Shown in pieces: positions 30,771 through 63,025 of a stretch of 64,000 nt of DNA. How positions within the stretch are numbered: position 1 is the stretch's first letter; the number at the start of each line of letters is the position of its first letter. Both the position numbers and the translations under genes were made by a program. The notes beneath the pieces are model-generated. The model was not told the origin of the DNA. It ran no database searches and was given only the letters and a program-made list of their open reading frames with translations. The stretch comes from Eledone cirrhosa (Eukaryota): assembly GCA_964016885.1 (NCBI GenBank), contig OZ024743.1:177444001-177508000 (forward strand). Direction: 5' to 3'.

Positions 30771-30793
30771 AATAATAATAATAATAATAATAA
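30771..30793. repeat. (AAT)n tract between Tx1 copies A and B
   Basis: aataataat... directly between the 5' end of A and the 3' tail of B. Confidence 0.95.
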
Positions 30794-31027
30794 TTTCATT
30801 TATTAGCCACAAGGGCCGACATGTAAGGGACAATACAAAGACAGGGACAGTGGGGGTTTACAATAAGGTCGAGTAAAAGTGCACAATGGCAAGACTAATT
30901 TAACAATGAAAATATAAAAATATAAATAAACATTGCGTAAATATAACAAAATAAATTCCCCAATCCTGAACCACCCTGCGCTTCTAGGGCACCCAGGGAG
31001 AGCACCCCTCTCCTCAAGTTAGCTAGC

Positions 31028-36511: not shown

Positions 36512-39500
36512 GCTTTCTTTATTAACCACAAGGGTTTACATAAAGTAGACATTAAGGACAGTACAGGACAATACAGGACCGTACAAATGGGCATTTCTGC
36601 GTGTAAAAAAAACAGGGGATGTAATAAAAAATAACAATGAAAAATTCCCCAATAGGGGGGAGACTTCCGAGGGACATTTGTGGAGAAAGCCCATTAAAAG
36701 GCCGCAGTGACCCTGACCACCAGGGCAAGTGCCCTCTCCCAGTTTTCCACCTTTAATTTACAGACAGATACCCAGAGTAGGCCCATTCACACGGGCGATA
36801 CTTGCTTCTCTCACCCATCTTTCAACAAAATGCTGGGAAGAGAGCACTTCCCTCTCTACACTGATTTTCCTTTTCAAATGAAATTTGAAAAAGTTAATCA
36901 GGGCATCACCGAAGAGGTAAGTGCTCGTCTTCAGCCCTTTCAAACGTGTCCACCATACTATCTCTTTCGCCATGGCCACCAGACAAATAAAAACTGCCTG
37001 GAGTTCCCGGCTAAAGGACGAGGGCAGGGAAATCCTAACGATGGACTCAGCTGATAGCTGGATCCGTCCTACACGTGACAGCAGGTTTTCCACATAAACC
37101 CACAAGTCAGCAATGCTCGGACACTGGACGAGTGCGTGCAGGACGGTTTCGTCGCCCTGCGCGCATCTCGGACATGCCCGGCTGACGGCACCTCCGTGCC
37201 TGTAGAGTTTATCCCGAACTGGCAAAGCTCCTCGGTAGCACTGCCAGGCCAGGGATTTCTGGAAGTTGTCCATAGGCCCCGGCCCGAAAGTCCTTCCGAA
37301 GAGATTGGCTAGTTGATTTTCGTCGACGCCTAGAGTTTCTCCAAGTACGTCGTCGCTCTTCCTCTCCACTAATCCTCTATAGAACACCAAGGTGGAGTTT
37401 CCACCGATCACATTGCCCGATTGGTCGAGGGCTGTGAGCGCCTGAAGACATTCCAGTCTCCAAGCGCTCCCTCTCTGTCTTCACTTGACCCAGGACTGCA
37501 GCTCCGTCAAGGAGACGAGCTGGGGAAAGACGTGTCTAGCAAACGGCGACCACACCTGATCACCGTCGAGGAAGAGGTGGAGATGTCGTAGCCTGAGCGC
37601 GTGTCTGCGCATCATCATCCACGGCATGCCCATCCCTCCACGTAGCGGGTGTTGACAGCAGATGGACCGCCTGACGATTGGAGCGCGTGCCTTCCACAAA
37701 AAGCGAAAGAGCAAACGTTCCAGCGCAGTCAGGCGGGGCTTAGGACAAGGTACGACGGTCAGGCGGTATTAGATGACGGACGCGATGTACGCTTTGGCCA
37801 CCTCCGCTCGACCTTTCAGAGATAGCTTCCTCTCCGCCAATTTCTGGGTGAGAGAAGCCACCCTGCTCGTCACCTCGTCCCAGTTTTTGTCCGTCTGGAG
37901 GTCCAGACCGAACCAGACCCCTAGCAATTTAACCGTCCGTCCATCCTGCGCCCGACGACGCTGTTGGACGGCATGGACCTGCCTCTCCAGGTGCCGAGCT
38001 TCAGGCCCACTGACTTTTCCTGGTTGATCATTGCTCCTGTCACCGCTTCGTATTCACTTAGTGTAGTGCCGATTGCCTCGATGTGTTTGGCGTTCGACAC
38101 CACTACGGTGACATCGTCCGCATATGCTGACACGGATCTTCCGCATCCTAGTTCGTGCGGGACCCCCCTCAACGTCTCCAGTTTGTGCAGTAATGGCTCG
38201 AGAGTCAATACGTACAATAGGGACGAGAGGGGACATCCTTGGCGGACCGAGCGCATGATGTTGAACGGTTCGGAAAGGTGACCGTTCACTCTCACCACAG
38301 AGCAGATGTCGCTGTGCATGGCAGCGATCCAGCCTCTGAAGACGGGTCCAAAGCCAGCCGCCCTCTGGACTGGCGCTAGGTAACGATGGTCGACCCTATC
38401 GAAAGCTTTCGACTGATCTAAATTGATCAAGCACCCACCTGTGCCAGGTTCCCTAGCTACCTTCTCTATGGTGTATCGCATGAGCTGGAGTTTGTCGTGG
38501 ATGGATCTGTCGGGAGTTGCGCACGTCTGTGCCTCTTCCACCAGACCACCAACGACAAGCGCCAACCTCTTTGCTAGGTACCTTGGCCAAAATCTTAAAC
38601 TCTGTGTTTAGCAGATTTATGGGCCTGAAATTATCTATGTTATCCCCCTTGTTCGGATCCTTTCTCAGCAGCGTCACAGCTCCTCGGCTCACAGAGCTGG
38701 GAATTCTCCCGTTCTGTTGCCAGTTGCATTAGACGTCCGCCAAGAGGACTCCGAACAAGTCTGGCATCTGTACGTAAAGTTCATAGGGCAGACCATCCAA
38801 ACCAGGCGATTTACCCCTTGTGCAGCCAGTTATTGCCTCCCGTACTTCAGCGGCTGTTATCGGCTTTTCGCAACACTCCGCCTCAGTGGCCGAGAGCCGC
38901 GGCAGTTCGTCGAGGTAGACACTAAAGTCCATCCGCTGCCCCCCGAACAGCTGCGCGAAGTGTCGCTGAAAAGCTTCACACATTTGCCCGGGATCGAGTA
39001 GCATGCGCCCGTCGTGGTCCACCAAAGACCGGATCGTGGCTTTGTTGCCACGACGCGCCTCCGCCACTCGGGCCCATTGAACGGCTTTCGTCCCCTCGTG
39101 TCTGAGAGCACGCACCCTAGCTCTGACAACGCAGCCTTCGTGCTTTGCATTGAAGAATTGGTCAAGGGCCAATTACGCCGCAAGTACGTCTGTCGCGATT
39201 CCTTTGCTAAGCGCCTCGTCTAATTTTCTAACTAATTCTACCTCTGCTCTATTTTTCTCTATTGCTAAAGCCTTACTAAACCTAATGGACTCTATTCTAA
39301 TTGCTCTTTTCAGAGCAAACCACCACTTGTTGTTGACGATGGCCCCCGTCAAAATACTCTATCTAGATATGATCTGGATGACCCTATGCGAATTGTCCAA
39401 GTCCACATGTGTATTTATTGCTGTGCATTTCTTTTTCTGGGGGTGGGGTGTGGTTCTGCTATTTTCTTGTCGTTGTTGCTGGGTGTGTGTGTTTTGTTGT

Positions 39501-41396: not shown

Positions 41397-41453
41397 AATA
41401 ATAACAATGATAATGATATTATTATTATCAATAATAATAATAATAATAATATT
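41397..41453. repeat. Degenerate (AAT)n/(ATT)n tract between Tx1 copy C and Dong copy 1
   Basis: aataataacaatgataatgatattattattatcaataataataataataataatatt. Confidence 0.9.
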
Positions 41454-44400
41454 ATCAAATGATAAAATCTCATACGGGATCGGCCGTCACCCGGGTCAAA
41501 AAGAGCCGCGTCCCTCAGAGAGGAACGAGACTGGGGTCGAAAAATCAGCTAATGGTTCAAACCTTCCCATCACTTCGGGGCTGGAGACCTCCCATAACCG
41601 GAATACTCCTACAGTTGGCCCTCCATGCTCACCACCAAGAAATCCAAATAAAAAGAGGGAAAAATGGTCAGGGGAAGACAATAAAGAAGTCCTTAAGACG
41701 TTCTACACTGCCATGTACTACCCATCAAATATATCGAATACAGAACAGACATATATCAACTGGAAAAAGAAACATCCCGAAAACAGAGGCTATATTGACA
41801 GTAACAAACTAGCCAATATACGAAGAAATATTGTTAACAATAAGTTACTAACTGATATAGAAATTGATCAGATCAAGCTATTAGCACAAAGTCAGCGAAG
41901 GGAAAATGAAACATGTGTCAGTGAAAACGAGGTAAATTGTAACACTTCGAATCCCAGGGTAGGCGAGGAATCACTGACAACAGAACACATTAAAGAAAGG
42001 ATCGAGAAAGTGGAGGGAGTGCATGCTCAAGATGAAACTCAAAATGAAAACAATGAGATCGTAATTGATAGAGAAATGAATGAGAATGAACTTGCCAACT
42101 TGAAGGATGAAATTATGATCGAATAGATGAAAATGAAAGAATTTGACATGGAGGAACGAAACACCCTCCCTAAGATCCAGAACTCCAAACAGAACCCAAA
42201 GATAATACACAAGATTAACATAATTCTCAAAAACATTATCATCACAAACAAACTAAACATTACTGATTTAAATCATCTCTATTATGCATCGGCTAAAGTC
42301 ACCACTCACTTATGTGGAGGGAAAATGAAAAAACAAAGGAATTCCTACAAGAAATCTACTTGGCAAGAGAACATCAATCGCCAAATAAACCTTCTCCGAT
42401 CTGACATAGAAATGTTAACAAACTACAAAGTAGGTGAACATGTTAAACAAACTAAACTTAGAAAATTGAAAAGAAAATAGAGTATAAAATTAACAAGTGA
42501 CATAGACATGCTTATAGAAATAATTAAGCAAAAAGTGTCGGCCAAAGCTGTTCATATAAGGCGCTTTGAAAAACGATCTAGATTCTATAAGGACAATAAT
42601 ATGTTCAAAAACAACCAAAGAAACTTCTACAGAAAAATTGACAAGTCAACAATAACTACTAAATCAATACCACCCAAGGAGGAAGTGCAAGAATTCTGGT
42701 AAAAGATCTGGGCTGAAGAAAAAGTTCATAATATACATGCCCCATGGATAGACAGACAAATGAAAGATACAGCTCACCTTGAGGAACAAATATGGGAAAA
42801 TATAACAGTTGAACAGTTGCGTTTGGCTCTTAGAAAAACCAGCAAATGTAAATCCCCAGGAAAAGACAAAATAACAAATTTCTGGATAAATGCCTTCACA
42901 GAGTCTCATGAGCTGTTAGCCCAACTTTACTATGAAATAGTTAAGGAGCCAGAAAAGATAGCATCATGGCTAGTTAACGGCATTACATTCCTGCTTCCGA
43001 AGAATGATGAGACAAACAATCCCAAAAATTACAGACCGATACCTTTCTTGACCACAATGTATAACATTTTAACATCAGTCCTAACTGAAGGACGACCCCT
43101 CTAGTCTTTGTTGACACTCGTCCTAAAAGTGGTAACACGAAATGATTACCCCTTGGCGGTTAAGGATAAAACGCGAGTTTAGACTAGATAAATGCGCCAA
43201 AGCAACGTTCACCAGAGGAAAGCTGCTGAAAAGTTCAGACATTAATCTTGATCGGAGGAATGTAATAAGAGAACTTGATCAAGAGGAAACTTGCAAATAT
43301 CTAGGTGTTTGTGAAGGAGACGGAATCAAGCACTCGACAATGAGGGAAAGGATAAGGAAGGAATGTTACCGCAGAGTAAGGGCAATCTTAAGAACGGAAT
43401 TGAATGCAAGGAATAGGATCGATGCCATAAACACGCTTGCCATACCAGTAGTAACCTACAGTTAAAATGTCATCAACTGGTCAAGAACAGAGATCCGTAG
43501 GCTCGATACAAAAATTTGAAAATTCTTAACCATGCACAGAATGCATCACCCTAAGGCAGATACAGATAGAATATATCTCCCTAGGAAAGAAGGAGGACGT
43601 GGGTTAATCCAGTTAGATATTGCGTTGAAAACCGCAACAATTGGATTATCTACATATCTAGGGAATCATATGATTGGGTGATCAAACTCGTTTTGAAACA
43701 CGAGAGCATCAAAAGATCATACTCCATTACAAAAGATGCACAAAGATACAGTAATGGACTACAAATTTCAGAAGTCCCATTTATTGCTGAAATGGAAAAC
43801 ACAGAAAAAGCAAAGCAGGTAAAAGTAACTGCAAAGAAAGAACTGCTACATAAACTGGCTAAGAAATGGCAAGAAAAGCCTCTGTATGGAAAATACCCAG
43901 AAAGAGCTAACAATCCTGATTTTGACAAAACTTTAACCCATCAGTGGTTGGCATCCTCTGGACTGAAATCGGAGACTGAAGGACTGATTATATCAGCACA
44001 AGATCAGTGTCTGCCAACAAAAAATTACCAAGCCAACATAATAAAAAAATGGATGCAACCCATTATGCCATGTATGTAAAAAACAACCAGAGACCATTGA
44101 TCATATAATTTCAATGTGCAGTCCTATAGCTCCAACCGAATACCTAAACAGGCATGACAGATCTGCACAATACATACATTGGATAATGTGTAAGCATTTT
44201 GACCTGCCCCATCAAAAGAATTGGTGGGAGCATCAACCACCTCCCATACTTGAAAAAGATCACATCTCAATCTTGTGGAACTTTAGCATCCAAACAGACC
44301 GAAAAATAGATGCAAATAGACCTGATATAATACTGAAGGACTTTAAAAAGAGGATATGCCTGCTAATTGATATGTCTGTCTCCAATAGACAAGAATGTAT

Positions 44401-44773
44401 CTATAAAAACATTTGAAAAATTGAGTAAGTATAAGGACCTGGTGATAGAAATTGGAAAAATGTGGAAATTGAGAACTAAAACAATACCAGTGGTTGTAGG
44501 CGCTCTAGGAATGATACCTAAGGTGTCTAATGATTACTTATCGCAAATCCTAGGAAACCCGCATATAGGAGAAATACAAAAGATAGTACTAATGGGAACT
44601 GCCCATATACTAAGGAAGATTCTGTCAATATAAGTACATCACAAGTCTAAACACCTAAATATGCATGTGTGTGTATGTATGTTCTTTCTTGAACATGGCG
44701 GACCTTGTTGTCTCTTGAGGTCACTGGTTGTGACTTGGTGATAACTCGTATGAACATAAGGCAAGATAAATGC
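41454..44773 (+). mobile_element. R4/Dong-clade RT-RLE retrotransposon copy 1, decayed, RT core deleted
   Basis: Motifs KREKWSGEDN, KSPGKDKI, NYRPI, YLPRKEGGRGL, WLASSGLKSETEGLIISAQDQ, CX2C...HIISMC, RHD, RPDI...LLID...KLSKYKDL (restriction-like endonuclease). The element ends in (AAT)n. Confidence 0.9.
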
Positions 44774-44789
44774 AAATAATAATAATAAT

Positions 44790-47700
44790 TGTTTCTACTT
44801 TTGGCACAAGGGCTGACATCAAGAAAAACATTACAGACGGCACAGGACGGTACAGGACGGTACGATGTGGGTTTTGTGCGTGTAAATATTTTTATTATTT
44901 ATATAAGAAAAGAAAAAAAGGACATAGAAACATATATATATATAAACAATACAAATGAAAATTGAAACAATGAAAAATACACAAATAGGGGGGAAACCTC
45001 CGACGGGTACTGGTGGCGAAAACCACACAAAAGACCACAGCCACCCTGACCACCAGGACAAGCGCCCTCTCTCAATTTTTTCCATTTCTCAAACTACAGA
45101 CGTATATTCAGAGCGGTCCCGTTTACTCGGACCATTCTCGCTACATTCACCCACCTTTCAACAAACTTGCTAGAAAGCAGTACTTGCCTCTCCACCCTGA
45201 TTTTCCTCTGCAAGTTAAACTTGAAAAAGTTAATTAGGGATTCGCCGAAGAGGAAAGTGTCTGTCTTTAAACCTTTGAACCTTGTCCACTACACAATCTC
45301 TTTCGCCATGGCTACCAGGCAGATGAAAACCGCCTGCCCTTCCTCCTCGAAGGAAGACGGCGAGACCATCTGCACAATGGACTCAGTCGATAACCGGATC
45401 AGTCCTACAGGCGACAGCAACTGTTCGACATACCTCCACAAGGCAGCAATGCTCGGGCACTGAACGAGTGCGTGCACGACGGATTCGTCGCTCTGCGCGC
45501 ATCTCGGACAGGTTCGGCTGACGGCACTTCCTTGCTTGTAGAGCTTATCTCGAACCGGTAGCACTGCCAGGCCAGGGATTTTTGGAAGTTATCCATAGAC
45601 CCTGGGCTGAAAGTTCTCCGTAAGAGAGCAAACAGCTGATCTTCTTCGACGCTCAAGATCTCTCCAAGAACGTTGTCGCTCTTCCCCTCCACTAGTCTTC
45701 CATAGAACGCCGAGGTGGATGTTCCACCGATACTGGTGCCCAGCTGGCAGAGGGCAGTGAGCGCCTGGAGACATTCCAGTTTCCAAGCGCTATCCCTCGG
45801 TCTTTTTCTGACCCAGGACTGCAGCTCCATCAAGGAGACGAGCTGTGGGAAAACGTGCCTGGCGAACGGCGACCACACCTGTTCACCGTCAAGGAAGCAC
45901 CAGAGATGTCGCAGCCTCAGCGCATGTTTGCGCATCATCAGCCATGGCATGCCCAGTCCTCCACGCAACGGGAGTTGACAGCAGATGGAACGTCTGACCA
46001 TGGGAGCACGTCCCTTCCACAAAAAGCGGAAGAGGAGGCGCTCCATTTTGGTGAGAGTTGGGCCGGAGCAAGGGACAACGGTGAGGCGGTAGCAGATGAC
46101 GGATGCGATGTACGCATTCGCCACCTCCGCTCGGCCTTTCAGGGACAGCTTCCTCTCAGCCCATTTCTGGGTGAGGGAGACCACCTTGCTCGTCTCCTCG
46201 TTCCAGTGTTTCTCCATCTGGAGGCCCGGTCCGAACCAGGCCCCGAGCAATTTAACCGGTCCGTCCGTCCAACGCCCCACGACGCTGTCGGACGGCATGG
46301 ACTTTCCTCTCCAGGTGCCGAGTTGCAAGCCCACCGACTTTTCCTGGTTTATCTTTGCTCCTGTCACCGCTTCGTATTCCTTGAGAGCGGTGCCGAGCAT
46401 CTGGACGTGTCTGTTGCTCGACACCACCACGGTGACGTCGTCGGCGTAAGCCGACTCGGATTTCCCTCATCCTAATTCGCGTGGGACGCCTCTCATCGCC
46501 GCCAGTTTGTGCAGTAACGGCTCGAGAGCCAATACGTACAAGAGGGACGAGAGGGGACAACCCTGGCGGACTGAGCGCATGATGCTTAACGGCTGCGACA
46601 GGTGACCGTTCACTCTCACAACTGAGCAGATGTCGCTGTACATCGCTGCGATCCAACCCCTGTAAACGGGCCCGAAACCGGATACCTCGAAAACCGCCGC
46701 CAGGTACCGATGGTCGACCCAATCGAATGCTTTGGATTGATCCAAGTTGATCAGGGCCCCACCCGTGCCAGGTTCCTTAACCACCCTCTCTATGATGTAT
46801 CACATGAGGTGGAGGTTGTCGTGTATGGATCTGTCCGGAATGGCACATGTCTGCGCCTCTCCCACCAGACCCTTGACGACAAGCGCCAACCTCGTTGCTA
46901 ACACCTTGGCCAAAATCTTGAACTCTGCGTTTAGCAGGGTTATGGGCCTGAAATTATCGATTATCCCCTTGTTCGGGTCTTTTCTCAGCAGCAGCACCGC
47001 TTCCCGGCTCACAAAACTGGGAATGCTCCCGTTCTGCTGCCAGTTGCAGTGGACGTCTGCCAAGAGGTCTGGCATAAATGCATAAAGCTCGTAGCGCAGA
47101 CCACCCAAACCTGGCGCTTTACCCCTCGTGCAGTTAGCCATCGCTTCCCGTATTCCACCGGCTATTATTGGCTTTTCGCAACACTGTGCTGCGGTCGTCG
47201 AGAGCCGAGGCAGTCCGTCGAGGTATGCACTGAAGTCCATACCCTGGATCCGGGCCGCCGCTGCTCCCGAACAGTTCAGCAAAGTGCTGCTGAAAAGCTT
47301 CACACATCCGCTCGGGTTCGAGGATCACGCACCCGCTTTGGTCAGACAAAGACTGAATTGTGGCTTTGTTGCCATGTCGCGCCTCTGCCACCCGGGCCCA
47401 TTGGACGGCTTTTGTCCCCACATGTTTCACGGCATGCGCTCTAGCTCTGACAACGCAGCCTTCGTGTTTTGCGTTGAAGAATTGGTCGAGTGCCAATCTC
47501 GCCGCAAGCACGTCGGTTGCGATGCTTGTCCTAAACGCCACTTCTAGCTTTGTGACTAGCTCTCCCTCTACTCTATTTTCCTCTATCACTACTCCTTTGC
47601 TAAACCTAATTGACTCTACTTTAATTGCCCTTTTCAGGGCGAACCACAACCTATTGTTGACGACCGGTCCCGTCAACGCCCGCTTAACTAATACGCTAAT

Positions 47701-50140
47701 CCGGTCTCTGTAGGCTTTGCGCGCCGGGAAAGACGCGTTCAACTTCCAGTAACCGGGCCCTTTGTTTATGAAGTCTGTCTATGTCGATCTCACAGATCAC
47801 AAATTTGTGGTCTGTGTAGTCGACTATTTTAAATTGTGGACAACTTATACTAGCCTTATCTAGTTCTCTGCAGAATACCTTATAGAGATACGATCTGGAT
47901 GACCCGATGCGGTTTGTCCATGTCCACATTGGCACATTCGGGTGATCCAGTCGATACCTGTCAGACAGTTCAAAACGTCTGAGCAGGTTGGTGAGGCTCT
48001 TGCACCCTCCTCCCCTATCCACTAGCCTCACACAATCCCAGCGTGCATCCAAGATACCGTTCCAGTCGCCCACTAACACTAAAGAGCGGGACGTTCCGAG
48101 AAAGGTCTCTAGACGTCTGAAGAAATCTGGCCGTCCTGCCCCTGTTGGGGCGTAGACAGCTACTAGCCTGAAAGCATTGCCTTCGCTGCCGGTCACGTCC
48201 AACCACACCGACTTCCCTTCTGGGTCTAGGAAGATGGCCCGTATGGCGAGATCCAAGCCTCTCCGAAAAAGGACGGCAACCCCTGCCCCCGATCCTGGAC
48301 GGCTGGGAGATGCGTATACATCGTAGCCGCCGAAGATCAGTGCGAAGGCTTGTGCTTCGGAGATTCTGGTCTCACTGATGGCCACCACATCTATGTTTAG
48401 TGACCTGAGGTCGTTGAGCAGGTGACCCTGCTTCCAAGATGACCCCAGGCCACGTGCATTTATACTGCCTATTCTGAGTACGGCCATGTTGGATGAGAAA
48501 CGAGGCAAGTGAGAAAGGGTCACTTACCTTGATCGTGTGGTGAAGGGACAGTAGAACCGTTCCTTTCGCTGGTCATGGGTGTTTCCAAGAGGATGTCGGT
48601 GTATATCCTCTTGGTAACTAACCCTCAGAAATCTCCAACTGCGTTGGGGAATTTTGGTTTTAAAGGTTTGTACTGTTCTATTGAGATTTCAATGATGCTT
48701 ATGTTTGTCGGGAGAGCTCTTGGTGTTGGTGGGTTGTAGTAGTTTTTTTTCTGTGATGTCTGTGTGCTGCTTTATATATTGTATGAGTTCTTTTTTTGCC
48801 ATGTTTATGGCTGTGTACTTTTTGGTGAGAGGGTGATTTTGTTGCTGTTTTCTTCTTGTTGCTGTTTGGTGTGTGTGTTTTGTTTTGTTTTGTTTGCCTT
48901 GTTGGTGTTTTTGGTGATGCTGGTGGTGGTGTGCTTGCTGTTGTCAGTGGTGCTTGTGGTTTTGATGGTGATGGTGGTGGTGTTGCTGCAAGTTTCCTTG
49001 CTGCCTTTACCCCTCTTTGTATGCCTTCGCTTTTGGAGGGTGAATCTAAGGGTATTTTTCTTTTTTGTCTTTTGTGGCAGACCGTTTGCCACTTCACTTC
49101 CGCCTCACTCTCCATGTCGGATTCCGTGGCGTCTGGGAGAGGTATGTGCTCCAGGGCTGTTGGTGGTGGTAGTGGAGCCCTCTTCGGCAATTTTGTTGCT
49201 GGTGTAGCTACTTCAAATGTAGCTATTGGTGTTGCCGCCACTGATGCTGCTGTTTAGTTGTCCGTGGCCTTGGTACGGGTGCCACGGACGTTGCCCCGCT
49301 ACTCACCGTGGAAGGGGCTTCTGCGTTTGTTGCCTGCCCTGCTCTTGGTTGCAGCGGACCAGGTATTGGCAGGAGAGGGGCCTTCTTCTTCGCTGTCTTC
49401 TGCGGACAAAAGGCCCTGAGGTGACCCTTCGACCCACAGAGATAACATTTTGGCCGTCTTCCTTCTACGCTTATAGGGAGTTGGAGTCCTTCCTCGATGT
49501 CTATGATATCGGCGATAGCGTCGATACATTCCTGGTCAGTTTGTATAAGCATTTGCATGCCTATACCTGAGCAGTTCTCTCTCCCTATTTTCTCTACTTG
49601 CAGCATGGTCGTCCTGTTCTCGATTCCAGCGAGGACAGACACGGCCAGCCAAGGTATGGGCACGTCGGGTAGGACCTGGGGCACTTTGAACCTCACAATT
49701 TTCTGCCCGCAGTAGGAGGGTACCAAGACTATTTCTTCACACTTTAGAGTTTCCAAAGAGTGAGACTTTGCTTCCTGGGGGCTGGCTAAAAGTACGTCTA
49801 CTGTGGCGTATTTTCTGCCTCGGGTGAGGTGGGTTTTGCGTGCCCAGACGCACCCCAAGGCCTTTTGGATTTGAGCCTCTGTGGCTCTCCACCCGATGTT
49901 AGATTTTGCTTACGGTGCGGTAAGTCACCGTCCGTAGCTGCTGGTCCTTGAAAAAATCGGGTGGCGGTTTCAGGGAGATTCTATTGGCGCTTCTTGTCAC
50001 CACGGCCCTTGCGACTGCCATCTCCTCCTCTGTGACTAACACGGTCTCGATATTTTGGGCGACACCTGCAAAAGCAGTGGTCCCTTTTTCAGCAGCACCA
50101 CTATTGCTGCCGCTACTGGTGTTACTGGTGGTGAATAAAA
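44790..50140 (-). mobile_element. Tx1/L1-clade LINE copy D, near full length, decayed; 5' end uncertain
   Basis: ORF2 runs from about 48487 (MAVLRIGSINARGL) to about 45094 with APE, RT and CCHC motifs across frameshifts. ORF1 carries KCYLCGSKGHLRAFC. The 3' end reads CCCTTGTGCCAAAAGTAGAAACA(ATT)n and is tail-to-tail with Dong copy 1. Confidence 0.9.
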
Positions 50141-50141
50141 C

Positions 50142-50525
50142 CTCCTCTGTCTACACTATATAGAACAGCCAAATAACAGCAATTTCACCACCACAACAAT
50201 CTAGATACACCACTTATCCCATCACTCCTCTGTGTACAATAAGTACAACAGCCAGACAACGGCAATTTCATGATTACTATTATTGTATCTCAAGTTTCCT
50301 CAAAATGTTTAATTCAAATATTAAGTAAATATGTCAACACATATATTAAACATACGCGAGAAACCGCATAGATATACAGATCAAACAAACGCACCCTACT
50401 ACAGTCTATTCAACAGAACTCAGTAACGACACGCCATCACTACTGTCACCGCCGCCACCACTCCATCATTGCTACCACTATCCTATCACCGCCCCTACCA
50501 CTCCTTCATTGCTACCACCACTATT
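50142..50525. repeat. Unassigned spacer containing two imperfect short tandem duplications (about 83-bp and about 39-bp period)
   Basis: ctcctctgt..acagcca..acagcaatttca recurs at about 50143 and 50225; tcaccgcc..ccactcc.tcattgctaccac recurs at about 50446 and 50486. Confidence 0.6.
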
Positions 50526-50757
50526 CCCCCACTACCTTCTGTTAACTTAAGAAAGGGGAAGGTGGCGGTATCACTAGAAAAGGGAGAGGCTAGCAAAAGA
50601 TATAAATAGACTGACTTAGTGACCCGGTCAAACGTCAACGACTATGGCACTGCTGGCTCCCCCCTTCCCCACCAACAATAGCAAACACCCAAGCACCACC
50701 ACCGACATAGCCAACAACAACAACAGGCAACTTCAACAAAAAGTATATTATATTATT

Positions 50758-50993
50758 AATAATAATTTCATTCTTAAGCCACGCAATGCTCACATTAAGG
50801 AACCACTCATGATAATAACAATTTAAAAAACAACAAAATAGAAAACCCATGACCAAGAAATACCGGGATGGCGGCCGGCGGGGAATAGCCGTGTCTCTAG
50901 GGGAGGACCCCCGCCCTCTAGTTTTGGTTGACACTCGTCCTAGAAGTGGTAACACGAAATGATTACCCCTTGGCGGTTAAGGATAAAACGCGA
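50758..50993 (-). mobile_element. Possible short 3' fragment of a further Tx1-related element
   Basis: Plus-strand aataatttcattcttaagccac...acattaagga resembles the copy B terminus aataatttcatttattagccac...acatgtaaggga and starts at an AAT tract. No clear protein motif is present. Confidence 0.4.
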
Positions 50994-51006
50994 CAAAATA
51001 TAGTAA

Positions 51007-54000
51007 ATATCAAATGATAAAATCTCATACCGGATCGGCCGTCACCCGGGTCAAAAAGGGCCACGTCCCTCAGAGAGGAACCAGACTGGGGTCGAAAAAT
51101 CAGCTAATGGTTCAAACCTTCCCATCACTTCGGGGCTGGAGGTCTCCCATAACCGGAATACTCTTACTGTGGCCCTCCATGCTCACCACCAAGAAATCCA
51201 AAGAAAAAGATAGAAAAATGGTCAAGGGAAGACAATAAAGAAGTCCTTGAGACTTTCTACACTGCCATGTACTACCCATCAAATAGATCGAATACAGAAC
51301 AGACATATATCAACTGGAAAAAGAAACATCCCGAAAACAGAGGCTATATTGAATGAATGAGAATGAACTTGCCAACTTGAAGGATGAAATTATGATCGAA
51401 TGGATGAAAATGAAAGAATCTGACATGGAGGAACGAGACACCCTCCCTAAGATCCAGAATTCCAAACAGAACCCAAAGATGATACACAAGACTAACATAA
51501 TTCTCAAAAACATTATCATCACAAACAAACTAAACATTACTGATTTAAATCATCTCTATTATGCATCGGCTAAAGTCACCACTCACTTATGTGGAGTGGA
51601 AATGAAAAAACAAAGGACTCCCACGAGAAATCTATTTGGCAAGAGAACATCAATCGCCAAATAATCCTTCTCCGATCTGACATAGAAATTTTAACAAACT
51701 ATAAAGTAGGTGAACATGTTAAACAAACTAAACTTAGAAAATTGAAAAGAAAATAGAGTATAAAATTAACAAGTGACATAGACATGCTGATAGAAATCAT
51801 CAAGCAAAAAGTGTCGGCCAAAGCTGCTCGTATAAGGCACTTTGAAAAACGATCTAGATTCTATAAGGACAATAATATGTTCAAAAACAACCAAAGAAAC
51901 TTCTACAGAAAAATTGGCAAGTCAACAATAACTGCTAAATCAATACCACCCAAGGAGGAAGTGCAAGAATTCTGGGAAAAGATCTGGGCCGAAGAAAAAG
52001 TTCATAATATACATGCCCCATCGATAGACAGACAAATGAAAGATACATTCACCTTGAGGAACAAATATGGGAAAATATAACAGTTGAACAGTTGCGTTTT
52101 GACTCTTAGAAAAACCAGCAAATGTAAATCCCCAGGAAAAGACAAAATACCAAATTTTTGGATAAAAGCCTTCACATAGTCTAATGAGCCCAACTTTACA
52201 ATGAAATAGTTAAGGAGCCAGAAAAGGTACCATCATGGCTAGTTAATGGCATTACAATCCTACTTCCGAAGAATGATGAGACAAACAAACCCCAAAATTA
52301 CAGACCGATAACTTGCTTGACCACAATGTATAACATTTTAACATCAGTCCTAACTGAATATACATATGAAAGATTGTTCTACATATGACCACCTGCTAAC
52401 AAATGATCTATTTCCCAATGAGCAGAAAGCGTGTCAACGAGGCTCATATGGCTGTAAGGATCAGCTTTTGGTTAACAAAATGATACTGGAAGATTGTCAT
52501 AATAGACACAAAAATCTATCAATTGCTTGGATAGATTATAAAAAAGCATTCGATAGTTTGCCATACAGTTGGATTGAAAAATGTTTAGAGATTTTCAAAA
52601 TATCTCCCGTTGTCAGGAGGTTCCTGTCATTCAGTATGAAGACATGGAAAACGACACTCCTTTTGAATAGTGAAAAAAAATGACTGGAAGCTGGAGAAGT
52701 TTATATTAATTGTGGAATTTTTCAGGGTGACTCTTTATCACCGCTTTTATTCTGCATCGCACTTATGCCATTAAGTAAAATGCTCAATGAAACAAAACAT
52801 GGATATAAAGTCTATGACAAAACCATTAATCACTTGTTCTACATGGATGACCTGAAACTATTCGCAAAAAATGATGAACAATTGCAAGGGCTATTATCCA
52901 CTGTGAAGCAGTTCAGTGATGACATTAAAATGGAGTTTGGACTAGATAAATGCGCCAAAGCAACGTTCACCAGAGGAAAGCTGCTGAAAAGTTCAAACAT
53001 TAATCTTGATCGGGGGAATGTGATAAGAGAACTTGATCAAGAGGAAACTTACAAATATCTAGGTGTTTGTGAAGGAGACGGAATCAAGCACTCGACAATG
53101 AGGGAAAGGATAAGGAAGGAATGTTACCGCAGAGTAAGAGCAATCTTAAGAACGGAATTGAATGCAAGGAATAGGATCGATGCCATAAACACGCTTGCCA
53201 TACCAGTAGTAACCTACAGTTACAATGTCATCAACTGGTCAAGCACAGAGATCCGTAGGCTCGATACAAAAACTTGAAAATTCTTAACCATGCACAGAAT
53301 GCATCACCCTAAAGCAGATACAGATAGAATATATCTTCCTAGGAAAGAAGGAGGACGTGGGTTAATCCAGTTAGACATTGCGTTGAAAACTGCAACAATT
53401 GGATTATCTACATAACTAAGGGAACCACATGATTGGATGATCAAACTCGTTTTGAAATACGAAAGGATCAAAAGATCATACTCCATTACAAAAGATGCAC
53501 AAAGATACAGTAATGGACTACAAATTTCAGAAGTCCCATTTACTGCTGAAATGGAAAACACAGAAAAAGCAAAGCAGGTAAAAGTAACTGCAAAGAAAGA
53601 ACTGCTACATAAACTGGCTAAGAAATGGCAAGAAAAGCCTCTGTATGGAAAATACCCAGAACGAGCTAACACTCCTGATGTTGACAAAGCTTTAACCCAC
53701 CAGTGGTTGGCATCCTCTGGACTGAAATCGGAGACTGAAGGACTGATTATATTAGCACAAGATCAGTGTCTGCCAACAAAAAATTACCAAGCCAACATAA
53801 TAAAAAATGGATGCAACCCATTATGCCGTGTATGTAAAAAACAACCAGAGACCATTGACCCCTAATTCCAATGTGCAGTCCTATAGCTCCAACCGAATAC
53901 CTAAACAGGCATGACAGAGCTGCACAATACATACATTGGATAATGTGTAAGCATTTTGACCTGCCCCATCAAAAGAATTGGTGGGAGCATCAACCACCTC

Positions 54001-54534
54001 CCATACTTGAAAAATATCACATCTTAATCTTGTGGAACTTTAGCATCCAAACAGACCGAAAAATAGATGCAAATAGACCTGATATAATACTGAAGGACTT
54101 TAAAAAGAGGGTATGCCTGCTAATTGATATGTCCGCCTCCAATAGACAAGAATGTATCTATAAAAACATTTGAAAAATTGAGCAAGTATAAGGACCTGGT
54201 GATAGAAATTTGAAAAATGTGGAAATTGAGAACTAAAACAATACCAGTGGTTGTAGGCGCTCTAGGAATGATACCTAAGGGGTCTAATGATTACTTATCG
54301 CAAATCCCAGGAAACCCGCGTATAGGAGAAATACTAAAGATAGTACTAATGGGAACTGCCCATATACTAAGGAAGATTCTGTCAATATAAGTACATCACA
54401 AGTCAAAACACCTAAAGATGCATGTGTGAGTATGTATGTTCTTTCTTGAACATGGCGGACCTTGTTGTCACTTGAGGTCACTGGTTGTGACTTGGTGATA
54501 ACTCGTATGAACATAAAACAAGATAAATGCAGCT

Positions 54535-54535
<1 letters not shown>
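51007..54535 (+). mobile_element. R4/Dong-clade RT-RLE retrotransposon copy 2, decayed
   Basis: Same family and same start as copy 1. It retains the RT core (WIDYKKAFDS, GIFQGDSLSPLLF, HLFYMDDLKL), CRVC..., RHD and the RLE, has a deletion of about 275 bp at about 51352, and ends in a long (AAT)n. Confidence 0.92.

Positions 54536-54596
<61 letters not shown>
54536..54596. repeat. (AAT)n tract, about 20 units
   Basis: Pure taataataa... run. Confidence 0.97.
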
Positions 54597-54600
<4 letters not shown>

Positions 54601-54937
54601 CAATACCAGTGGTTGTAGGCGCTCTATGATGATACCTAAAACAATACCAGTGGTTGTAGGCGCTCTAGGAATGATACCTAAGGGGTCTAATGATTACTTA
54701 TCGCAAATCCCAGGAAACCCGCGTATAGGAGAAATACAAAAGATAATACTAATGGGAACTTCCCATATACTAAGGAAGATTCTGTCAATATAAGTATATC
54801 ACAAGTCTAAACACCTAAAGATGCGTGTGTGAGTATGTATCTTCTTTCTTGAACATGGCGGACCTTGTTGTCTCTTGAGGTCACTGGTTGTGACTTGGTG
54901 ATAACTCGTATGAACATAAAGCAAGATAAATGCAGCT

Positions 54938-54938
<1 letters not shown>
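54597..54938 (+). mobile_element. 5'-truncated Dong copy 3 (RLE C-terminus and 3' UTR)
   Basis: Near-identical to 54235-54535, with a 41-bp tandem duplication at its 5' end; followed by (AAT)n 54939-54976. Confidence 0.9.
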
Positions 54939-54976
<38 letters not shown>

Positions 54977-55240
54977 GCTGAAAAATATTTGGGCCAGATA
55001 TCTGGAAAGCTATATCTGCAAGAGATATAGCAAATAGTGCTGACTGGCACAGTCCATGTCCTTAGAAGGGCATTATCAATTTAAATACCTTGCAAATACA
55101 TTTATTGTTTTTATGTCTTTATTGTATCATTTATATAACAGTTGATTGTTAAATATATGTATTACCAAATGTTGTCTCAGGTGTCAGGTTGACACTCGGG
55201 AATGATTTGGGAAAGAAGCAGAATTCAAAGGAAGTTTCAA
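54977..55240 (+). mobile_element. 3' fragment of a second Dong-like family
   Basis: Translates as AEKYLGQISGKLYLQEI*QIVLTGTVHVLRRALSI*, homologous to the Dong C-terminus IQKIVLMGTAHILRKILSI*. Bounded by AAT tracts. Confidence 0.75.
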
Positions 55241-55257
55241 ATAATGATAATAATAAT

Positions 55258-55375
55258 TGTTTCTACTTTTGGCACAAGGCCAGCAATTATCCCAGTGCAT
55301 TACTGGTACTTTATTTTATTGACCTCGTAAGGATGACAGGCAAACTTAACCTCGGCGGGATTTGAACTCAGACTG
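55258..55375 (-). mobile_element. tRNA-derived SINE, 5'-truncated
   Basis: Minus strand has a B-box-like GAGTTCAAATCC, a central TTTGCC..CATCC..GGTC.ATAAAATAAAGTACCAG domain (resembling the Meta/MESC-type domain, from memory) and the tail CCTTGTGCCAAAAGTAGAAACA(ATT)n. Confidence 0.8.
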
Positions 55376-55392
55376 TAAATAATAATAATAAT

Positions 55393-55570
55393 TGTTTCTA
55401 CTTTTGGCACAAGGCCAGCAATTATCTGAGTGTATTACTGATACTTTATTTTATGGACCCCATAAGGATGAAAGGCAAAGTTAACCTCGGCGGGATTTGA
55501 ACTCAGAATAGAAAGGGCCGTAACTCTATGCTGCAAAGCATGGCGTCAGACCCTCTAACGATTCTGACAA
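55393..55570 (-). mobile_element. tRNA-derived SINE, same family
   Basis: Same tail, central domain and B-box as 55258-55375, with a longer 5' part containing an A-box-like segment; head-to-tail with the previous copy through an AAT tract. Confidence 0.8.
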
Positions 55571-55748
55571 GTCAATGATCATAATCCTTTCTAACATCAA
55601 AATTATAATTTGTATCATAATAATAATAACATCAACAATAACACTCCTCAGTTTTTTTTTAATTGTTTTTCTTTCGTTTTAAAAAAATACCCAGTAGAGA
55701 TATCGTGCTTCATTGATAAACCGATTTTTTTAAATAGATGCAGTTAAC

Positions 55749-56141
55749 TCAATGTGAACTGCTAGAATCGCTTTTATCCACGAGTAGTTTATTTAAAAAG
55801 AGAGAATTCGTATTAAGATTGATATATTTAGATCCTGAAGAGCTGTTCTGTATCTTTTTCATTGGAATATAGTTTACACCTTGTGATGATTTTCGAAGAC
55901 TTTTGCAAAGCGGACTTTTTGAAGAGACATCATTTTCATAACTATTAACATTGGAGTTGTTGGATGAGAGCAAAGGAACATTTGTAAGTGAAAGAGAGAA
56001 AGAAGTAGCGTTATAATTGTCGTAATCTTCATTTTCTTGTTCTTGCTCTTGTTCAATATCTTGTTGCTGTTGCTCATTCAAATTATCTTCTTTTTCAATT
56101 AAGTCTTGTTTCAGTTGCTGTTCTTGCTGTTCTTTCTGTTG

Positions 56142-56195
<54 letters not shown>

Positions 56196-57008
56196 TTCTT
56201 GCTGTTGTAGCTGCGACTGTAATCCCTGTTGTTGACAGTTTGTTTCATCGTGACGATTGTGAAAATCATAAGGCTTAATGACATTATTGGGTTGTTTCAG
56301 CTGTAGAAGTCTGGGGAATTGCTTGTGTTGGTGATGAATTTTGTTATTGTTATTGTTGGTTTTAATGCTGTTACTGCTATTGCTGCTGCCACTACTGTCA
56401 TGACTTATTTGTTGCTCTTGTTGATTTGATTGATTGAGGCTGTCTTGAAGTTGAGGTTGAGGTTGAAGATGATGATGATGAGAGGTGGGATTTGAAGAAG
56501 GGATGGGATTAGGATGTGAATTTGTATGAGGGTGAGGATGATGATTATGGTAATGTAGAGGGAGAAGTAAGTTTTCCTCAGCATTGGTGTCTCTTTGAGT
56601 TTCAGTATTATCTTTTCTGGAATCAAACTGAGATTTATTCTCATTCTTAGGAATTGATGATTCTTGGTTCATATACAAATAATTTATATAAGAACGTATT
56701 CCAGGAACATAGCGATTACCTTTACGGTTACACGTGTTTGTGTTAATATCTTGAGATGTCTGTTTAGCAGTTTTCTTGTAGGTGTCAACTGAGCCAGATT
56801 TCTGCTCATTATTGTCATTATTGATCTCTCTATCTGATGAATTGTTCTCAGACATTTCAGATATTGATTCAGAAATCAAAGACGAATAAGAACTTTTGTT
56901 GTCATCTCTTTTAGTTAAGGAGTTCTCTAGATTAGGAAGTTCGACAAACGTTTCTTTTGAAAGATTGTATTGAAATGTCGGTAACGTATATGTCGCTGTA
57001 TTCGGGTC
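55749..57008 (-). CDS. ALK: ALK/LTK-like receptor tyrosine kinase, terminal coding exon (419 aa plus stop; low-complexity, polyQ tail)
   Basis: Acceptor ttattttag|GAC at 57009; an open 1260-bp frame in phase 0 continuing into ORF 55749-56879. It starts DPNTATYTLP, comparable to DPDVINTALP at the start of the last human ALK exon. Confidence 0.75.
56136..56195 (-). repeat. Coding polyglutamine tract Q20 including a pure (CAG)14
   Basis: Plus strand reads ctg(ttg)4(ctg)14ttg, in frame within the terminal exon. Confidence 0.9.
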
Positions 57009-57122
57009 CTAAAATAAATAAGAAACAGAAATTAATAATAATAATAATTGTTTCTACTTTTCTACTTTGTTTAAGGAGGAGGCTAGCCTGCTCTGTAATA
57101 TCCGTGGAGAGATAGAGAGATA

Positions 57123-58641: not shown

Positions 58642-59505
58642 AATAATAATCTATATATTCATTAAATTGTTTCTCCACACGTAATCTTTAGTAAGAGGCG
58701 AAATATTTGTCTGCTCGGGTGAAGGAGAAGGGGGGTGAGGGGGAGAGGGAGAAGAAAAAGAAGGGTGAAGAAGGGTGAAGAAAGAAGATGAAGAAGGAAG
58801 AAGAGGACACTTTCTAACTTTGTAAATTATGCTGATACAGTTGGCAGAACAATGCACTATCAATGGATCCCAGTATCTAATTTGACGCCTCAAAACGTAA
58901 ATAAATGTTGCTTTTCATCTCTGTAATTTAGATTAAACGTGTAACCGTACAAACATCTTCAGGGCTGATCCTTATTTCCTTTTAAAAAAATACTTGAATA
59001 TTGATTATATCTCATTGAAGAAAATCTGTATGACATCATTATTTTATTCTTTTATTCTAATTTATGTGTTCAGCATTAAACGGTTTGATTATATTACTTC
59101 GGGATATGTTAAAAATAAAATGGAGGAAAAGAAGCGAATAAGTTTACATATTGATTTATTCTTAATTGCTGAAATAGAACAAAATGCTAGAATGGCATTA
59201 ACTCTAATATACTGCATGTGTTTTATTGATCCAATGAGAATATAAACCCTACTGCCTTAAACAAAACGAATACACATTGAACAGTGTTGCACTTGATATA
59301 CGAAACGAGTTGGTCGTGAATGGATCTATTTTGCTTGATTAATACTGACCTGGGGCTAAATAATAACAATACTAACATCCACAACAACAACAGTGTATAG
59401 CACCCTGGCAGAATCAATATTTTATAGTAGTATCATTGAAAGTTATAAACTAGCATTGGTTAACTGCAATAACTTAGAGTGTACAAACTTGATAAAATAA
59501 ATAAT

Positions 59506-59689
59506 TGTTTCTACTTTAGGCACAAGGCCATCAATTACTCAGTGCATTACTGGTACTTTATTTTATCGACCCCGTAAGGATGAAAGGCAAAGTCAACCTC
59601 GGCGGGATTTGAACTCAGATCGAGAAGGGACGTAACTATGCTTGAAAACATGGCGTCCGACCCTCTACCGATACTGCCAATCCACCGCC
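59506..59689 (-). mobile_element. tRNA-derived SINE with a 15-bp target-site duplication
   Basis: Same family as 55393; flanked by identical gataaaataaataat at 59491-59505 and 59690-59704. Confidence 0.88.
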
Positions 59690-59704
59690 GATAAAATAAA
59701 TAAT

Positions 59705-60068
59705 GGTTCTTGATTGAGACACAAGACAAACAAATGTAGGGAAGGGGCAAGTTGATTAAGTCGACTCCAGTACGTTACAGGTACTTTATTTTATCGACCA
59801 TGTAAGGATGAAGAGCAAAGCTAACTTCGGCGGAATGTGAAAATATTAATGGTTTCTGATTTAAGCACAAGGCCAACAGTTTAGGTAGAGAAGAAAGTTG
59901 ATTAAATCGACCCGAGAGGGTTACTGGTACTATATCTAATCGACCCCGTAAAGATTAAAAGCAAAGCTAACCTCGGCGTGATGGGAACTCAGCATGTAAA
60001 GAGTCGTAACTATATACCACAATTAATGTTGTTCGACACTCTATTCCGATTGTGCCACATCACCACCA
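59705..60068 (-). mobile_element. Two older related SINE copies (about 59705-59845 and about 59850-60068)
   Basis: They share the central domain and carry an extra gttgattaa.tcgac segment. The tail variant is CCTTGTGCTTAAATCAGAAACC-ATT. Confidence 0.75.
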
Positions 60069-60078
60069 TTATAATAAT

Positions 60079-60418
60079 TGTTTCTACTATTAGGCACAAG
60101 GCCAGCAATTACCCAGTACATAACTAGTACTTTATTTTATCGACCCCGTAATGATGAAAGGCAAAGTTAACCTCAGCAGGATTTGAACTCAGAATAGCAA
60201 GGGCCGTAACTCTATGGGTCAAAGCATAGCGTCCGACCCTCAACCGATACTGCCAATCCAATAATAATTGTTTCTACTTTTGGCACAAGGCCAGCAATTA
60301 TCCAGTGCATTACTGGTAATTTATTTTATCGACCCCGTAAGGATGAAAGGCAAAGTTAACCTCGGCGGAATTAGGGGCGTAACTCTTTGCGTCAAAGCAT
60401 GGCGTCCGACCCTCTACT
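60079..60418 (-). mobile_element. Two tandem SINE copies (60079-60259 and 60269-60418)
   Basis: Each starts on the plus strand with ataataattgtttctact..ggcacaaggccagcaatta and has the family central domain; they are joined by AAT repeats. Confidence 0.85.
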
Positions 60419-60559: not shown

Positions 60560-60770
60560 GGTTTCTGATTTAGGAAAAACGTCAATAATTTTGGGGAGGG
60601 GAAGTTGATTAAATTAACTCCAATGCGTTACAGGTACTTTATCTATAGATCATGTAAGGATGAAAGGCAAAGCTACCCTGGAGGTATTTGAACGCAGAAT
60701 GTAAGGGACCGTAATTCTAAGTCACAAAGCATGTTGCCTGACACTACCAATACTGCCAATCAACCGTTCT
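60560..60770 (-). mobile_element. Older SINE copy
   Basis: ggtttctgatttagg...gtaaggatgaaaggcaaag...atttgaac; diverged from the copies above. Confidence 0.7.
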
Positions 60771-62944: not shown

Positions 62945-63025
62945 TGTTCAGATTATGCCGAGCTCAACTTGGCCTTTCATCCATTTCGGGTCTATAAACC
63001 AGTATCAGTCATGTACTAGGATCGA
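62945..63025 (+). mobile_element. Degraded SINE fragment (same central domain as the AAT-tailed SINEs, opposite strand)
   Basis: gccgagctcaacttggcctttcatccatttcgggtctataaa..agtatcag. Confidence 0.55.

Follow-up and report, generated by a model that had tools for sequence, protein, structure and literature searches.

A probably chimeric LINE tail and a hairpin predicted in both LINE and SINE 3′ ends: a candidate L1/Tx1-like partner of an octopus SINE

LINE copy D, a member of an L1/Tx1-like lineage, ends in 22 nucleotides that are identical to the 3′ tail of a SINE family in the same window (the whole 64-kb stretch of octopus DNA that was analysed). Copy D is very probably a chimera joined at the motif CCTTGTG. 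The case is a caution, in that the perfect tail match in one copy is that of a chimera and the informative signal lies in the imperfect matches. That this LINE lineage is the true partner copying the SINE is likely but unproven. The complete reading, in which the tail of copy D is chimeric, a hairpin is common to the native LINE tails and the SINE, the LINE copies the SINE and both are steered to ATT repeats, has in our judgement slightly better than an even chance of being right. An earlier note on this DNA had proposed a partnership with ATT targeting through the exact tail of copy D; the partnership is kept as likely, because the AATAAA-type native tails, which that note treated as a refutation, themselves appear homologous to the SINE tail, but it is not carried by the exact tail of copy D.

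Positions 1-28456 of the window are a 48-bp satellite (593 copies, 89% matches), strongly G-skewed and with long stop-free frames, and beyond these 28.4 kb retroposons are crowded together in a nest, linked to one another by runs of ATT/AAT. Adjoining the satellite is a head-to-tail array (28457-50870) of at least five L1/Tx1-like copies of different subfamilies (about 74-82% identical), every copy being joined by an ATT run. The minus-strand copies follow head-to-tail in the order E, D, C, B, A, and copy A is scrambled and partly inverted. Identity with copy D is about 79% for C and about 74% for B, and the 3′ UTR of copy D is alignable with those of B and C. The features concerned are these:

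30794 to 30817, minus strand: native tail of LINE copy B, with predicted stem GGCC/GGCT and loop CTTGT, then (ATT)8
36512 to 36533, minus strand: native tail of LINE copy C, with predicted stem AACC/GGTT and loop CTTGT, then an AATAAA-type stretch and (ATT)6
41453 to 44774, plus strand: R4/Dong-like copy 1, lying within the ATT run that separates D from C, its polarity opposite to that of the LINE
44775 to 44789, minus strand: (ATT)5, separating copy D from the 3′ end of Dong-like copy 1
44790 to 44811, minus strand: SINE-type tail of 22 nt ending LINE copy D (exact match to three SINE copies)
44805 to 44811, minus strand: CCTTGTG, the predicted hairpin loop and its closing pair, common to LINE and SINE tails
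44812 to 50750, minus strand: LINE copy D, disrupted and of nearly full length; the 5′ limit is approximate
45097 to 45564, 45501 to 47321 and 47696 to 48523, minus strand: ORF2 pieces of copy D (C-terminus, reverse transcriptase (RT) and endonuclease, respectively)
49223 to 49909, minus strand: ORF1 piece of copy D with a CCHC knuckle
50758 to 50800, minus strand: decayed short tail E, lying directly 5′ of copy D and kin to the tail of B (83% over 36 nt to 30775-30810)

The LINE is an L1-group non-LTR retrotransposon, having an APE endonuclease, an RT, a C-terminal zinc domain and an RT nearest to that of L1. The Pfam domains Exo_endo_phos (APE endonuclease) and RVT_1 were found in copy D, and RVT_1 and zf-RVT in P0001, a relative that is 71% identical to copy D. 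P0001 matches human L1 ORF2p with an E value of about 1e-50, as against 1e-24 for R2, and human L1 ORF2p is also the closest among solved structures. A search of NCBIfam gave sub-threshold RT and endonuclease models only, and one of the protein-cluster Atlas RVT_1 clusters only. A CCHC zinc knuckle in ORF1 is a trait of the Tx1 clade, and the Tx1 label would fit the CX2CX4HX4C knuckle in the ORF1 pieces of B and D; these pieces have no Pfam match, and no named Tx1 reference occurs among the matches listed in the searches for ORF2 relatives. Among the same matches, Argonauta hians supplies the nearest named relative (61%), which makes an octopod the likely host, and the nearest named animal relative outside the cephalopods is a lancelet protein (30%). 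Two JGI proteins are 81-85% identical to P0001. The ORF2 lineage may be a distinct branch of the L1 group. The closest non-cephalopod relatives of ORF2 are metagenome proteins (P0003-P0016 and P0041-P0131) with about 37-47% identity, mostly above the 30% of the lancelet. Protein scans gave no further loci.

Eight copies, none longer than about 215 nt, belong to the SINE family; they fall into a short and a long type and all lie on the minus strand between 55258 and 60770, and the three diverged ones at 59705, 59851 and 60560 had been overlooked before.

55258 to 55575, minus strand: two short-type SINEs head-to-tail (55258-55372 and 55393-55575), both with the exact tail
57049 to 57061, minus strand: a stub with 13 nt of the SINE tail, behind (AAT)5
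59506 to 59690, minus strand: the most complete SINE (short type), with A/B-box-like head, central body and tail
59705 to 60418, minus strand: four further SINEs head-to-tail, long at 59705 and 59851, short at 60079 and 60269
60560 to 60770, minus strand: decayed long-type SINE that has lost the predicted hairpin

These elements are short, multicopy and non-coding, and one of them has a target-site duplication, as expected of SINEs. The copy at 59506 is flanked by a 15-bp duplication of degenerate ATT repeat (59491-59505 and 59691-59705) that accounts for its entire apparent tail, as would be expected if the RNA annealed to the target to prime synthesis. Its A/B boxes were read by eye only; ARAGORN reported 0 tRNA genes, and no tRNA match is among the six Rfam hits. 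The MetaSINE, CORE-SINE and Ceph-SINE superfamilies are each marked by a central domain; an exact-string search for the SINE body motifs in the searchable supplement files of PMC4824008, PMC4758252 and PMC5786205 gave no match to the SINE body, and a reading of the element as a MetaSINE gained no support from that motif search. Further loci were found neither with the SINE body pattern in the genome contig collection nor with the tail patterns in the viral and metagenome contig collections. A decayed piece of SINE body in reverse orientation is present at 62946-63017 (plus strand, 73% over 74 nt, no recognisable tail). In addition, an open frame of 419 residues at 55749-57008 (minus strand) spans a (CAG)15-type repeat and has no Pfam match; it may be an exon of the host lying among the SINE arrays.

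The 22-nt string at the end of copy D has five matches with three or fewer mismatches in 64 kb, all on the minus strand, as against 0 in 100 shuffles. Exact copies are at 44790-44811, 55258, 55393 and 60269 (minus strand), each with an ATT run after it; the minus-strand copy at 59506 has one mismatch and the tail at 60079 one substitution and one inserted base. What the earlier note had reported of these matches, namely the identity with three SINEs, the differences of 1-2 nt at 59506 and 60079 and the 13-nt stub at 57049, was confirmed. Copy D is LINE-like through CCCTTGTG and SINE-identical from CCTTGTG on. It had been missed that the tails of B and C are homologous to that of copy D up to and including CCCTTGTG.

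In a partner pair the SINE 3′ end is homologous to the 3′ end of a LINE family, and for this comparison the exact identity of copy D was excluded, being chimeric. Copy C has such homology: its tail agrees with three SINE tails at 14, 15 and 17 of 22 positions without gaps (empirical p 0.00015-0.00055, with the SINE copies left in the null), and the 17 of 22 reached with the long-type SINE tail equals the match between the short-type and long-type SINEs. Moreover, copy C and the SINE have the same spacing from the hairpin to AGAAA-(ATT)n. The homology of copy B is seen only with gaps (8/22 ungapped; gapped p 0.0006-0.0024), and tail E agrees with the SINE tails at 6-7 of 22 positions. The stretch common to LINE and SINE tails is about 22-26 nt.

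Copies B (GGCC/GGCT) and C (AACC/GGTT) and the short-type SINE (TGGC/GCCA) are each predicted to form four pairs around the loop CTTGT. Outside the satellite CCTTGTG occurs at 12 sites, eight of which (B, C and six SINE tails) have 3-4 pairs, the remaining ones, copy D and three unrelated sites, having one. RNAalifold, given B, C and four of the eight SINEs, found the same three pairs unaided, none of them broken and two with two-sided changes. The covariation over ten rows, including D, was 0.46 vs 0.15 or less for slid partners, a figure from about three independent lineages and for a structure chosen from the same sequences; it was reached by 18 of 500 shuffles, such counts not being probabilities, and by itself is not significant. 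By base composition the chance of two extra pairs is 0.14, or about 0.02 for two lineages. The predicted stem is weak (-0.6 to -3.4 kcal/mol), and it is absent from the two decayed SINEs at 59705 and 60560. Copy D is the one tail with an intact CCTTGTG whose predicted hairpin is broken: here a LINE arm (AGCC) meets a SINE arm (GCCA) and folding leaves only the closing pair, with C-C and A-A mismatches. Were the tail of the majority of sequencing reads, described below, placed on copy D, three pairs would return, as read by eye.

Four of 22 listed sequencing runs were aligned to 44640-45389. Run X20 consists of raw RAD-seq reads from organism H, in which about half of the sampled window words are present and which may be a relative of the window species. 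In this run 1717 reads, which may derive from few loci, fit the 3′ UTR of copy D and diverge at 44805 into an AATAAA-type tail (consensus agreement 0.92). On the element strand the divergent consensus has GGCC after the loop, then AATAAA and ATT repeats, like B and C, and 198 more reads (12 starts) with an extra C after 44804 fit the same tail. The AATAAA-type tail accounts for at least 71-73% of the reads anchored in the copy D 3′ UTR (depth about 2630-2690), up to about 28% of the anchored reads being unclassified. In run X16 the alignment of contig 19, a whole-genome contig, stops at 44800 with 28 letters left, according to the contig coordinates. The 22-mer behaves as a SINE tail: the contigs bearing it extend behind 44811 into SINE body (220, 105 and 106 contigs in three organisms), and its summed depth is 26, 118 and 90 times that of the next 25 bases in the three organisms, a ratio that is not a copy number. 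The SINE tail is far more abundant than the LINE 3′ UTR. By the exact match to three SINEs and the departure of the family reads at 44805, the last 15 nt of the copy D tail (44790-44804) are probably SINE-derived, and CCTTGTG (44805 to 44811) would be the crossover point.

A chimera at CCTTGTG, which had been offered earlier as an alternative, agrees with all of this: the identity stops exactly at the motif, the predicted hairpin is broken, and no SINE body is found at the 5′ flank of D. A search for SINE body in 41400-55240 gave none (best hits 10-13 nt, E 3.1), and a plain insertion of copy D into a SINE at CCTTGTG, being unlikely for that reason, was rejected. The earlier note had preferred a D family that is natively SINE-tailed and the direct donor of the SINE tail. 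This, or an active D subfamily of that kind, is now very improbable, because at least 71-73% of the anchored X20 reads end in the AATAAA-type tail, the stem of D is broken by the C-C and A-A mismatches and the identity goes no further than the shared motif, although the identity is 22/22, the unclassified reads could amount to about 28% and the RAD stacks may represent few loci from a related species. The finding that the earlier note had named as counting against its view, AATAAA-type tails like those of B and C in most copies of the D family, is what the X20 reads contain.

It is hardly credible that the junction of D and SINE tail was created by misassembly where two repeats meet. Repeats are nested here, and none of the contigs listed bridges the junction (44811/44812 with the SINE tail); however, an unbridged junction proves nothing when the contigs listed are a part of the whole, and the join falls inside a 7-nt shared motif and preserves the exact tail length of copy C. 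The start of contig 2 of run X1 at 44811 was considered as junction evidence and is uninformative, as the assembly graph may branch at a nearby 10-bp repeat. Returning to the chimera, its tail would have arisen once or in a small subfamily. A SINE may have lain just downstream, with a deletion running from the CCTTGTG of D to its own; reverse transcription may have switched at the loop from a SINE RNA template to a LINE RNA one; or a short gene conversion may have taken place. These three routes would be indistinguishable here.

The tail likeness could also be a relic or a coincidence, with copy D chimeric as above, the SINE copied by some other LINE (RTE, CR1, L2 or Dong-R4) and only ATT-rich sites in common. 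The short common stretch and the weak covariation speak for this reading, as does the prominence of RTE, Dong-R4 and CR1 in octopus (PMC13282606, PMC8967140, in the parts accessible); in the accessible text of PMC3747384, CR1 and RTE dominate the known pairs and L1-clade pairs are rare. We regard it as rather unlikely, because copy C matches the long-type SINE tail at 17 of 22 positions, as well as the short-type SINE does, the stem letters differ yet pair, and the five Dong-like tails in the window have no match and the opposite polarity. The LINE tails compared with the SINE are limited to those of this LINE and the five Dong-like elements.

The transfer might also have gone the other way: a Tx1-like ancestor that targeted SINE tails, or read through into them, would have taken over the SINE 3′ end, copy D being a recent repeat of the event. 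Tx1 families often target other repeats (PMC4494074, as far as its accessible text goes), copy D shows that such capture happens, and the SINE tail far outnumbers the LINE 3′ UTR. This is improbable, since no SINE body is present at any LINE 5′ flank and B and C pair with different letters, which suggests that the LINE needs the stem.

The LINE and the SINE lie head-to-tail in ATT repeats with one polarity. An ATT run is found at the 5′ flank of LINE copies A, B, C and D, all of them at one locus and degenerate for C and D, and directly at the 5′ flank of six of the eight SINEs; ATT-rich flanks are common in the window. Two plus-strand elements, 41453 to 44774 and 50860-54975, which we take to be of the R4/Dong type, are about 95% identical to each other with internal rearrangements. 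In the second the 3′ end is duplicated, with (TAA)21 and (TAA)13, and the first lacks the last 5 nt present at these two ends. Three more diverged Dong-like fragments are at 54977, 57060 and 57800. Dong-like elements were rejected as partner of the SINE, their five tails being without match (p no better than 0.04 against the SINE tail) and of opposite polarity. Record 17 of run X16 has a Dong-like end beside a SINE-type tail at a diverged locus, so this neighbourhood is not unique. Furthermore, a U5 snRNA-like piece at 58650-58733 (minus strand) scores 27.9 bits (E 0.31), under the gathering score of 40, with a nearly exact loop-I region; it has (ATT)3 after it and the polarity of the LINE and SINE copies, and may have originated as an snRNA retrocopy inserted at ATT. 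Such a retrocopy would argue for relaxed recognition, provided that this LINE produced it.

For the preferred reading, that the LINE copies the SINE, we infer the following mechanism. The ORF2 protein of the LINE would bind a short 3′ stem-loop (loop CUUGU, stem of 3-4 bp), and its endonuclease would nick an ATT/AAT microsatellite, where the AUU end of the RNA could anneal and prime reverse transcription. The SINE RNA would mimic the stem-loop and be copied in trans, giving head-to-tail arrays of LINE and SINE with the same polarity. A bolder version is tentative and falls somewhat short of an even chance: an animal LINE of the L1/Tx1 group would read a minimal hairpin (CUUGU, 3-4 bp) and not poly(A), would drive a major octopus SINE and send both to ATT, and would have produced copy D by a template switch at the loop.

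The SINE of the window is abundant, as octopus SINEs are, one of which is OK. Others named from octopus are OR1, OR2 and 'tRNA-Core/tRNA-Deu' (PMC4824008, PMC4758252, PMC8967140), and SINEs make up 11.6% of the Octopus vulgaris genome, for which 80 L1-Tx1 families are on record (PMC13282606). Papers on octopus repeats list L1-Tx1, Dong-R4, RTE, CR1 and abundant SINEs (PMC13282606, PMC8967140, PMC9115989), and in their accessible parts none names a partner LINE of the octopus SINEs. A table of 58 pairs, as far as accessible, has no mollusc and no Tx1 and contains only three L1-clade pairs, from maize/sorghum and Chlamydomonas (PMC3747384, PMC3472496). The searchable literature held no tail-sharing pair of Tx1 and SINE and no partner of an octopus SINE; Repbase, Dfam, SINEBase and subscription papers (Ohshima and Okada 1994, 2005; Kojima and Fujiwara 2004) may hold one. 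If true, the present case would be, within that literature, the first tail-sharing SINE partner for the L1/Tx1 group in animals.

In its behaviour the pair resembles the stringent SINE/LINE pairs and is a candidate member of them. UnaSINE/UnaL2 and zebrafish ZfL2 likewise have a short 3′ hairpin with a conserved loop and a variable stem, followed by a short tandem repeat (PMC4176376, PMC3747384), and for zebrafish L2 elements recognition of the stem-loop by ORF2 has been shown (PMC4176376). The partners of that type are of the L2, CR1 or RTE clade, whereas here the LINE is of the L1 group, the common stretch is about 22-26 nt and the recognition is putative; LINE-derived SINE tails have been published with about 50-100 nt (PMC3472496, PMC3747384).

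With regard to targeting, the Tx1 families Kibi at (TC)n and Koshi at (TTC)n and the crocodilian ones at (TTCC)n/(TTTC)n are alike in inserting into microsatellites with fixed polarity (PMC4494074). The target here is (ATT)n, and no such Tx1 target is named in the accessible text of that paper, its figure aside. The same paper describes the crocodilian pair of SINEU and Tx1-Mar, in which, as is supposed here, the SINE would owe its mobilisation to a Tx1 LINE and take over the target preference of that LINE. SINEU, however, is linked to the LINE through the target and a 5′ head and has a poly(A) end, no LINE that shares the SINEU-1 3′ terminus having been found (PMC4494074), whereas the link here is the 3′ tail.

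It is an open question whether L1-group LINEs were originally stringent for the tail and later relaxed to poly(A), and an animal case that combines a hairpin of 13 nt with compensatory variants found in nature would open this question to direct test. The nearest likeness on the L1 side is in green plants and algae, where in ZmSINE2/3 with LINE1-1_ZM and SINEX-3_CR with L1-1_CR the 3′ end of an L1-clade LINE is common with a tRNA-derived SINE (PMC3472496, PMC3747384), and for the maize ZmSINE2/3 pair compensatory stem changes were reported (PMC3472496). Those green-plant and algal pairs have about 50-80 nt in common and poly(A)/poly(T) ends, whereas the candidate described here is from an animal, ends in (ATT)n and is targeted to a microsatellite.
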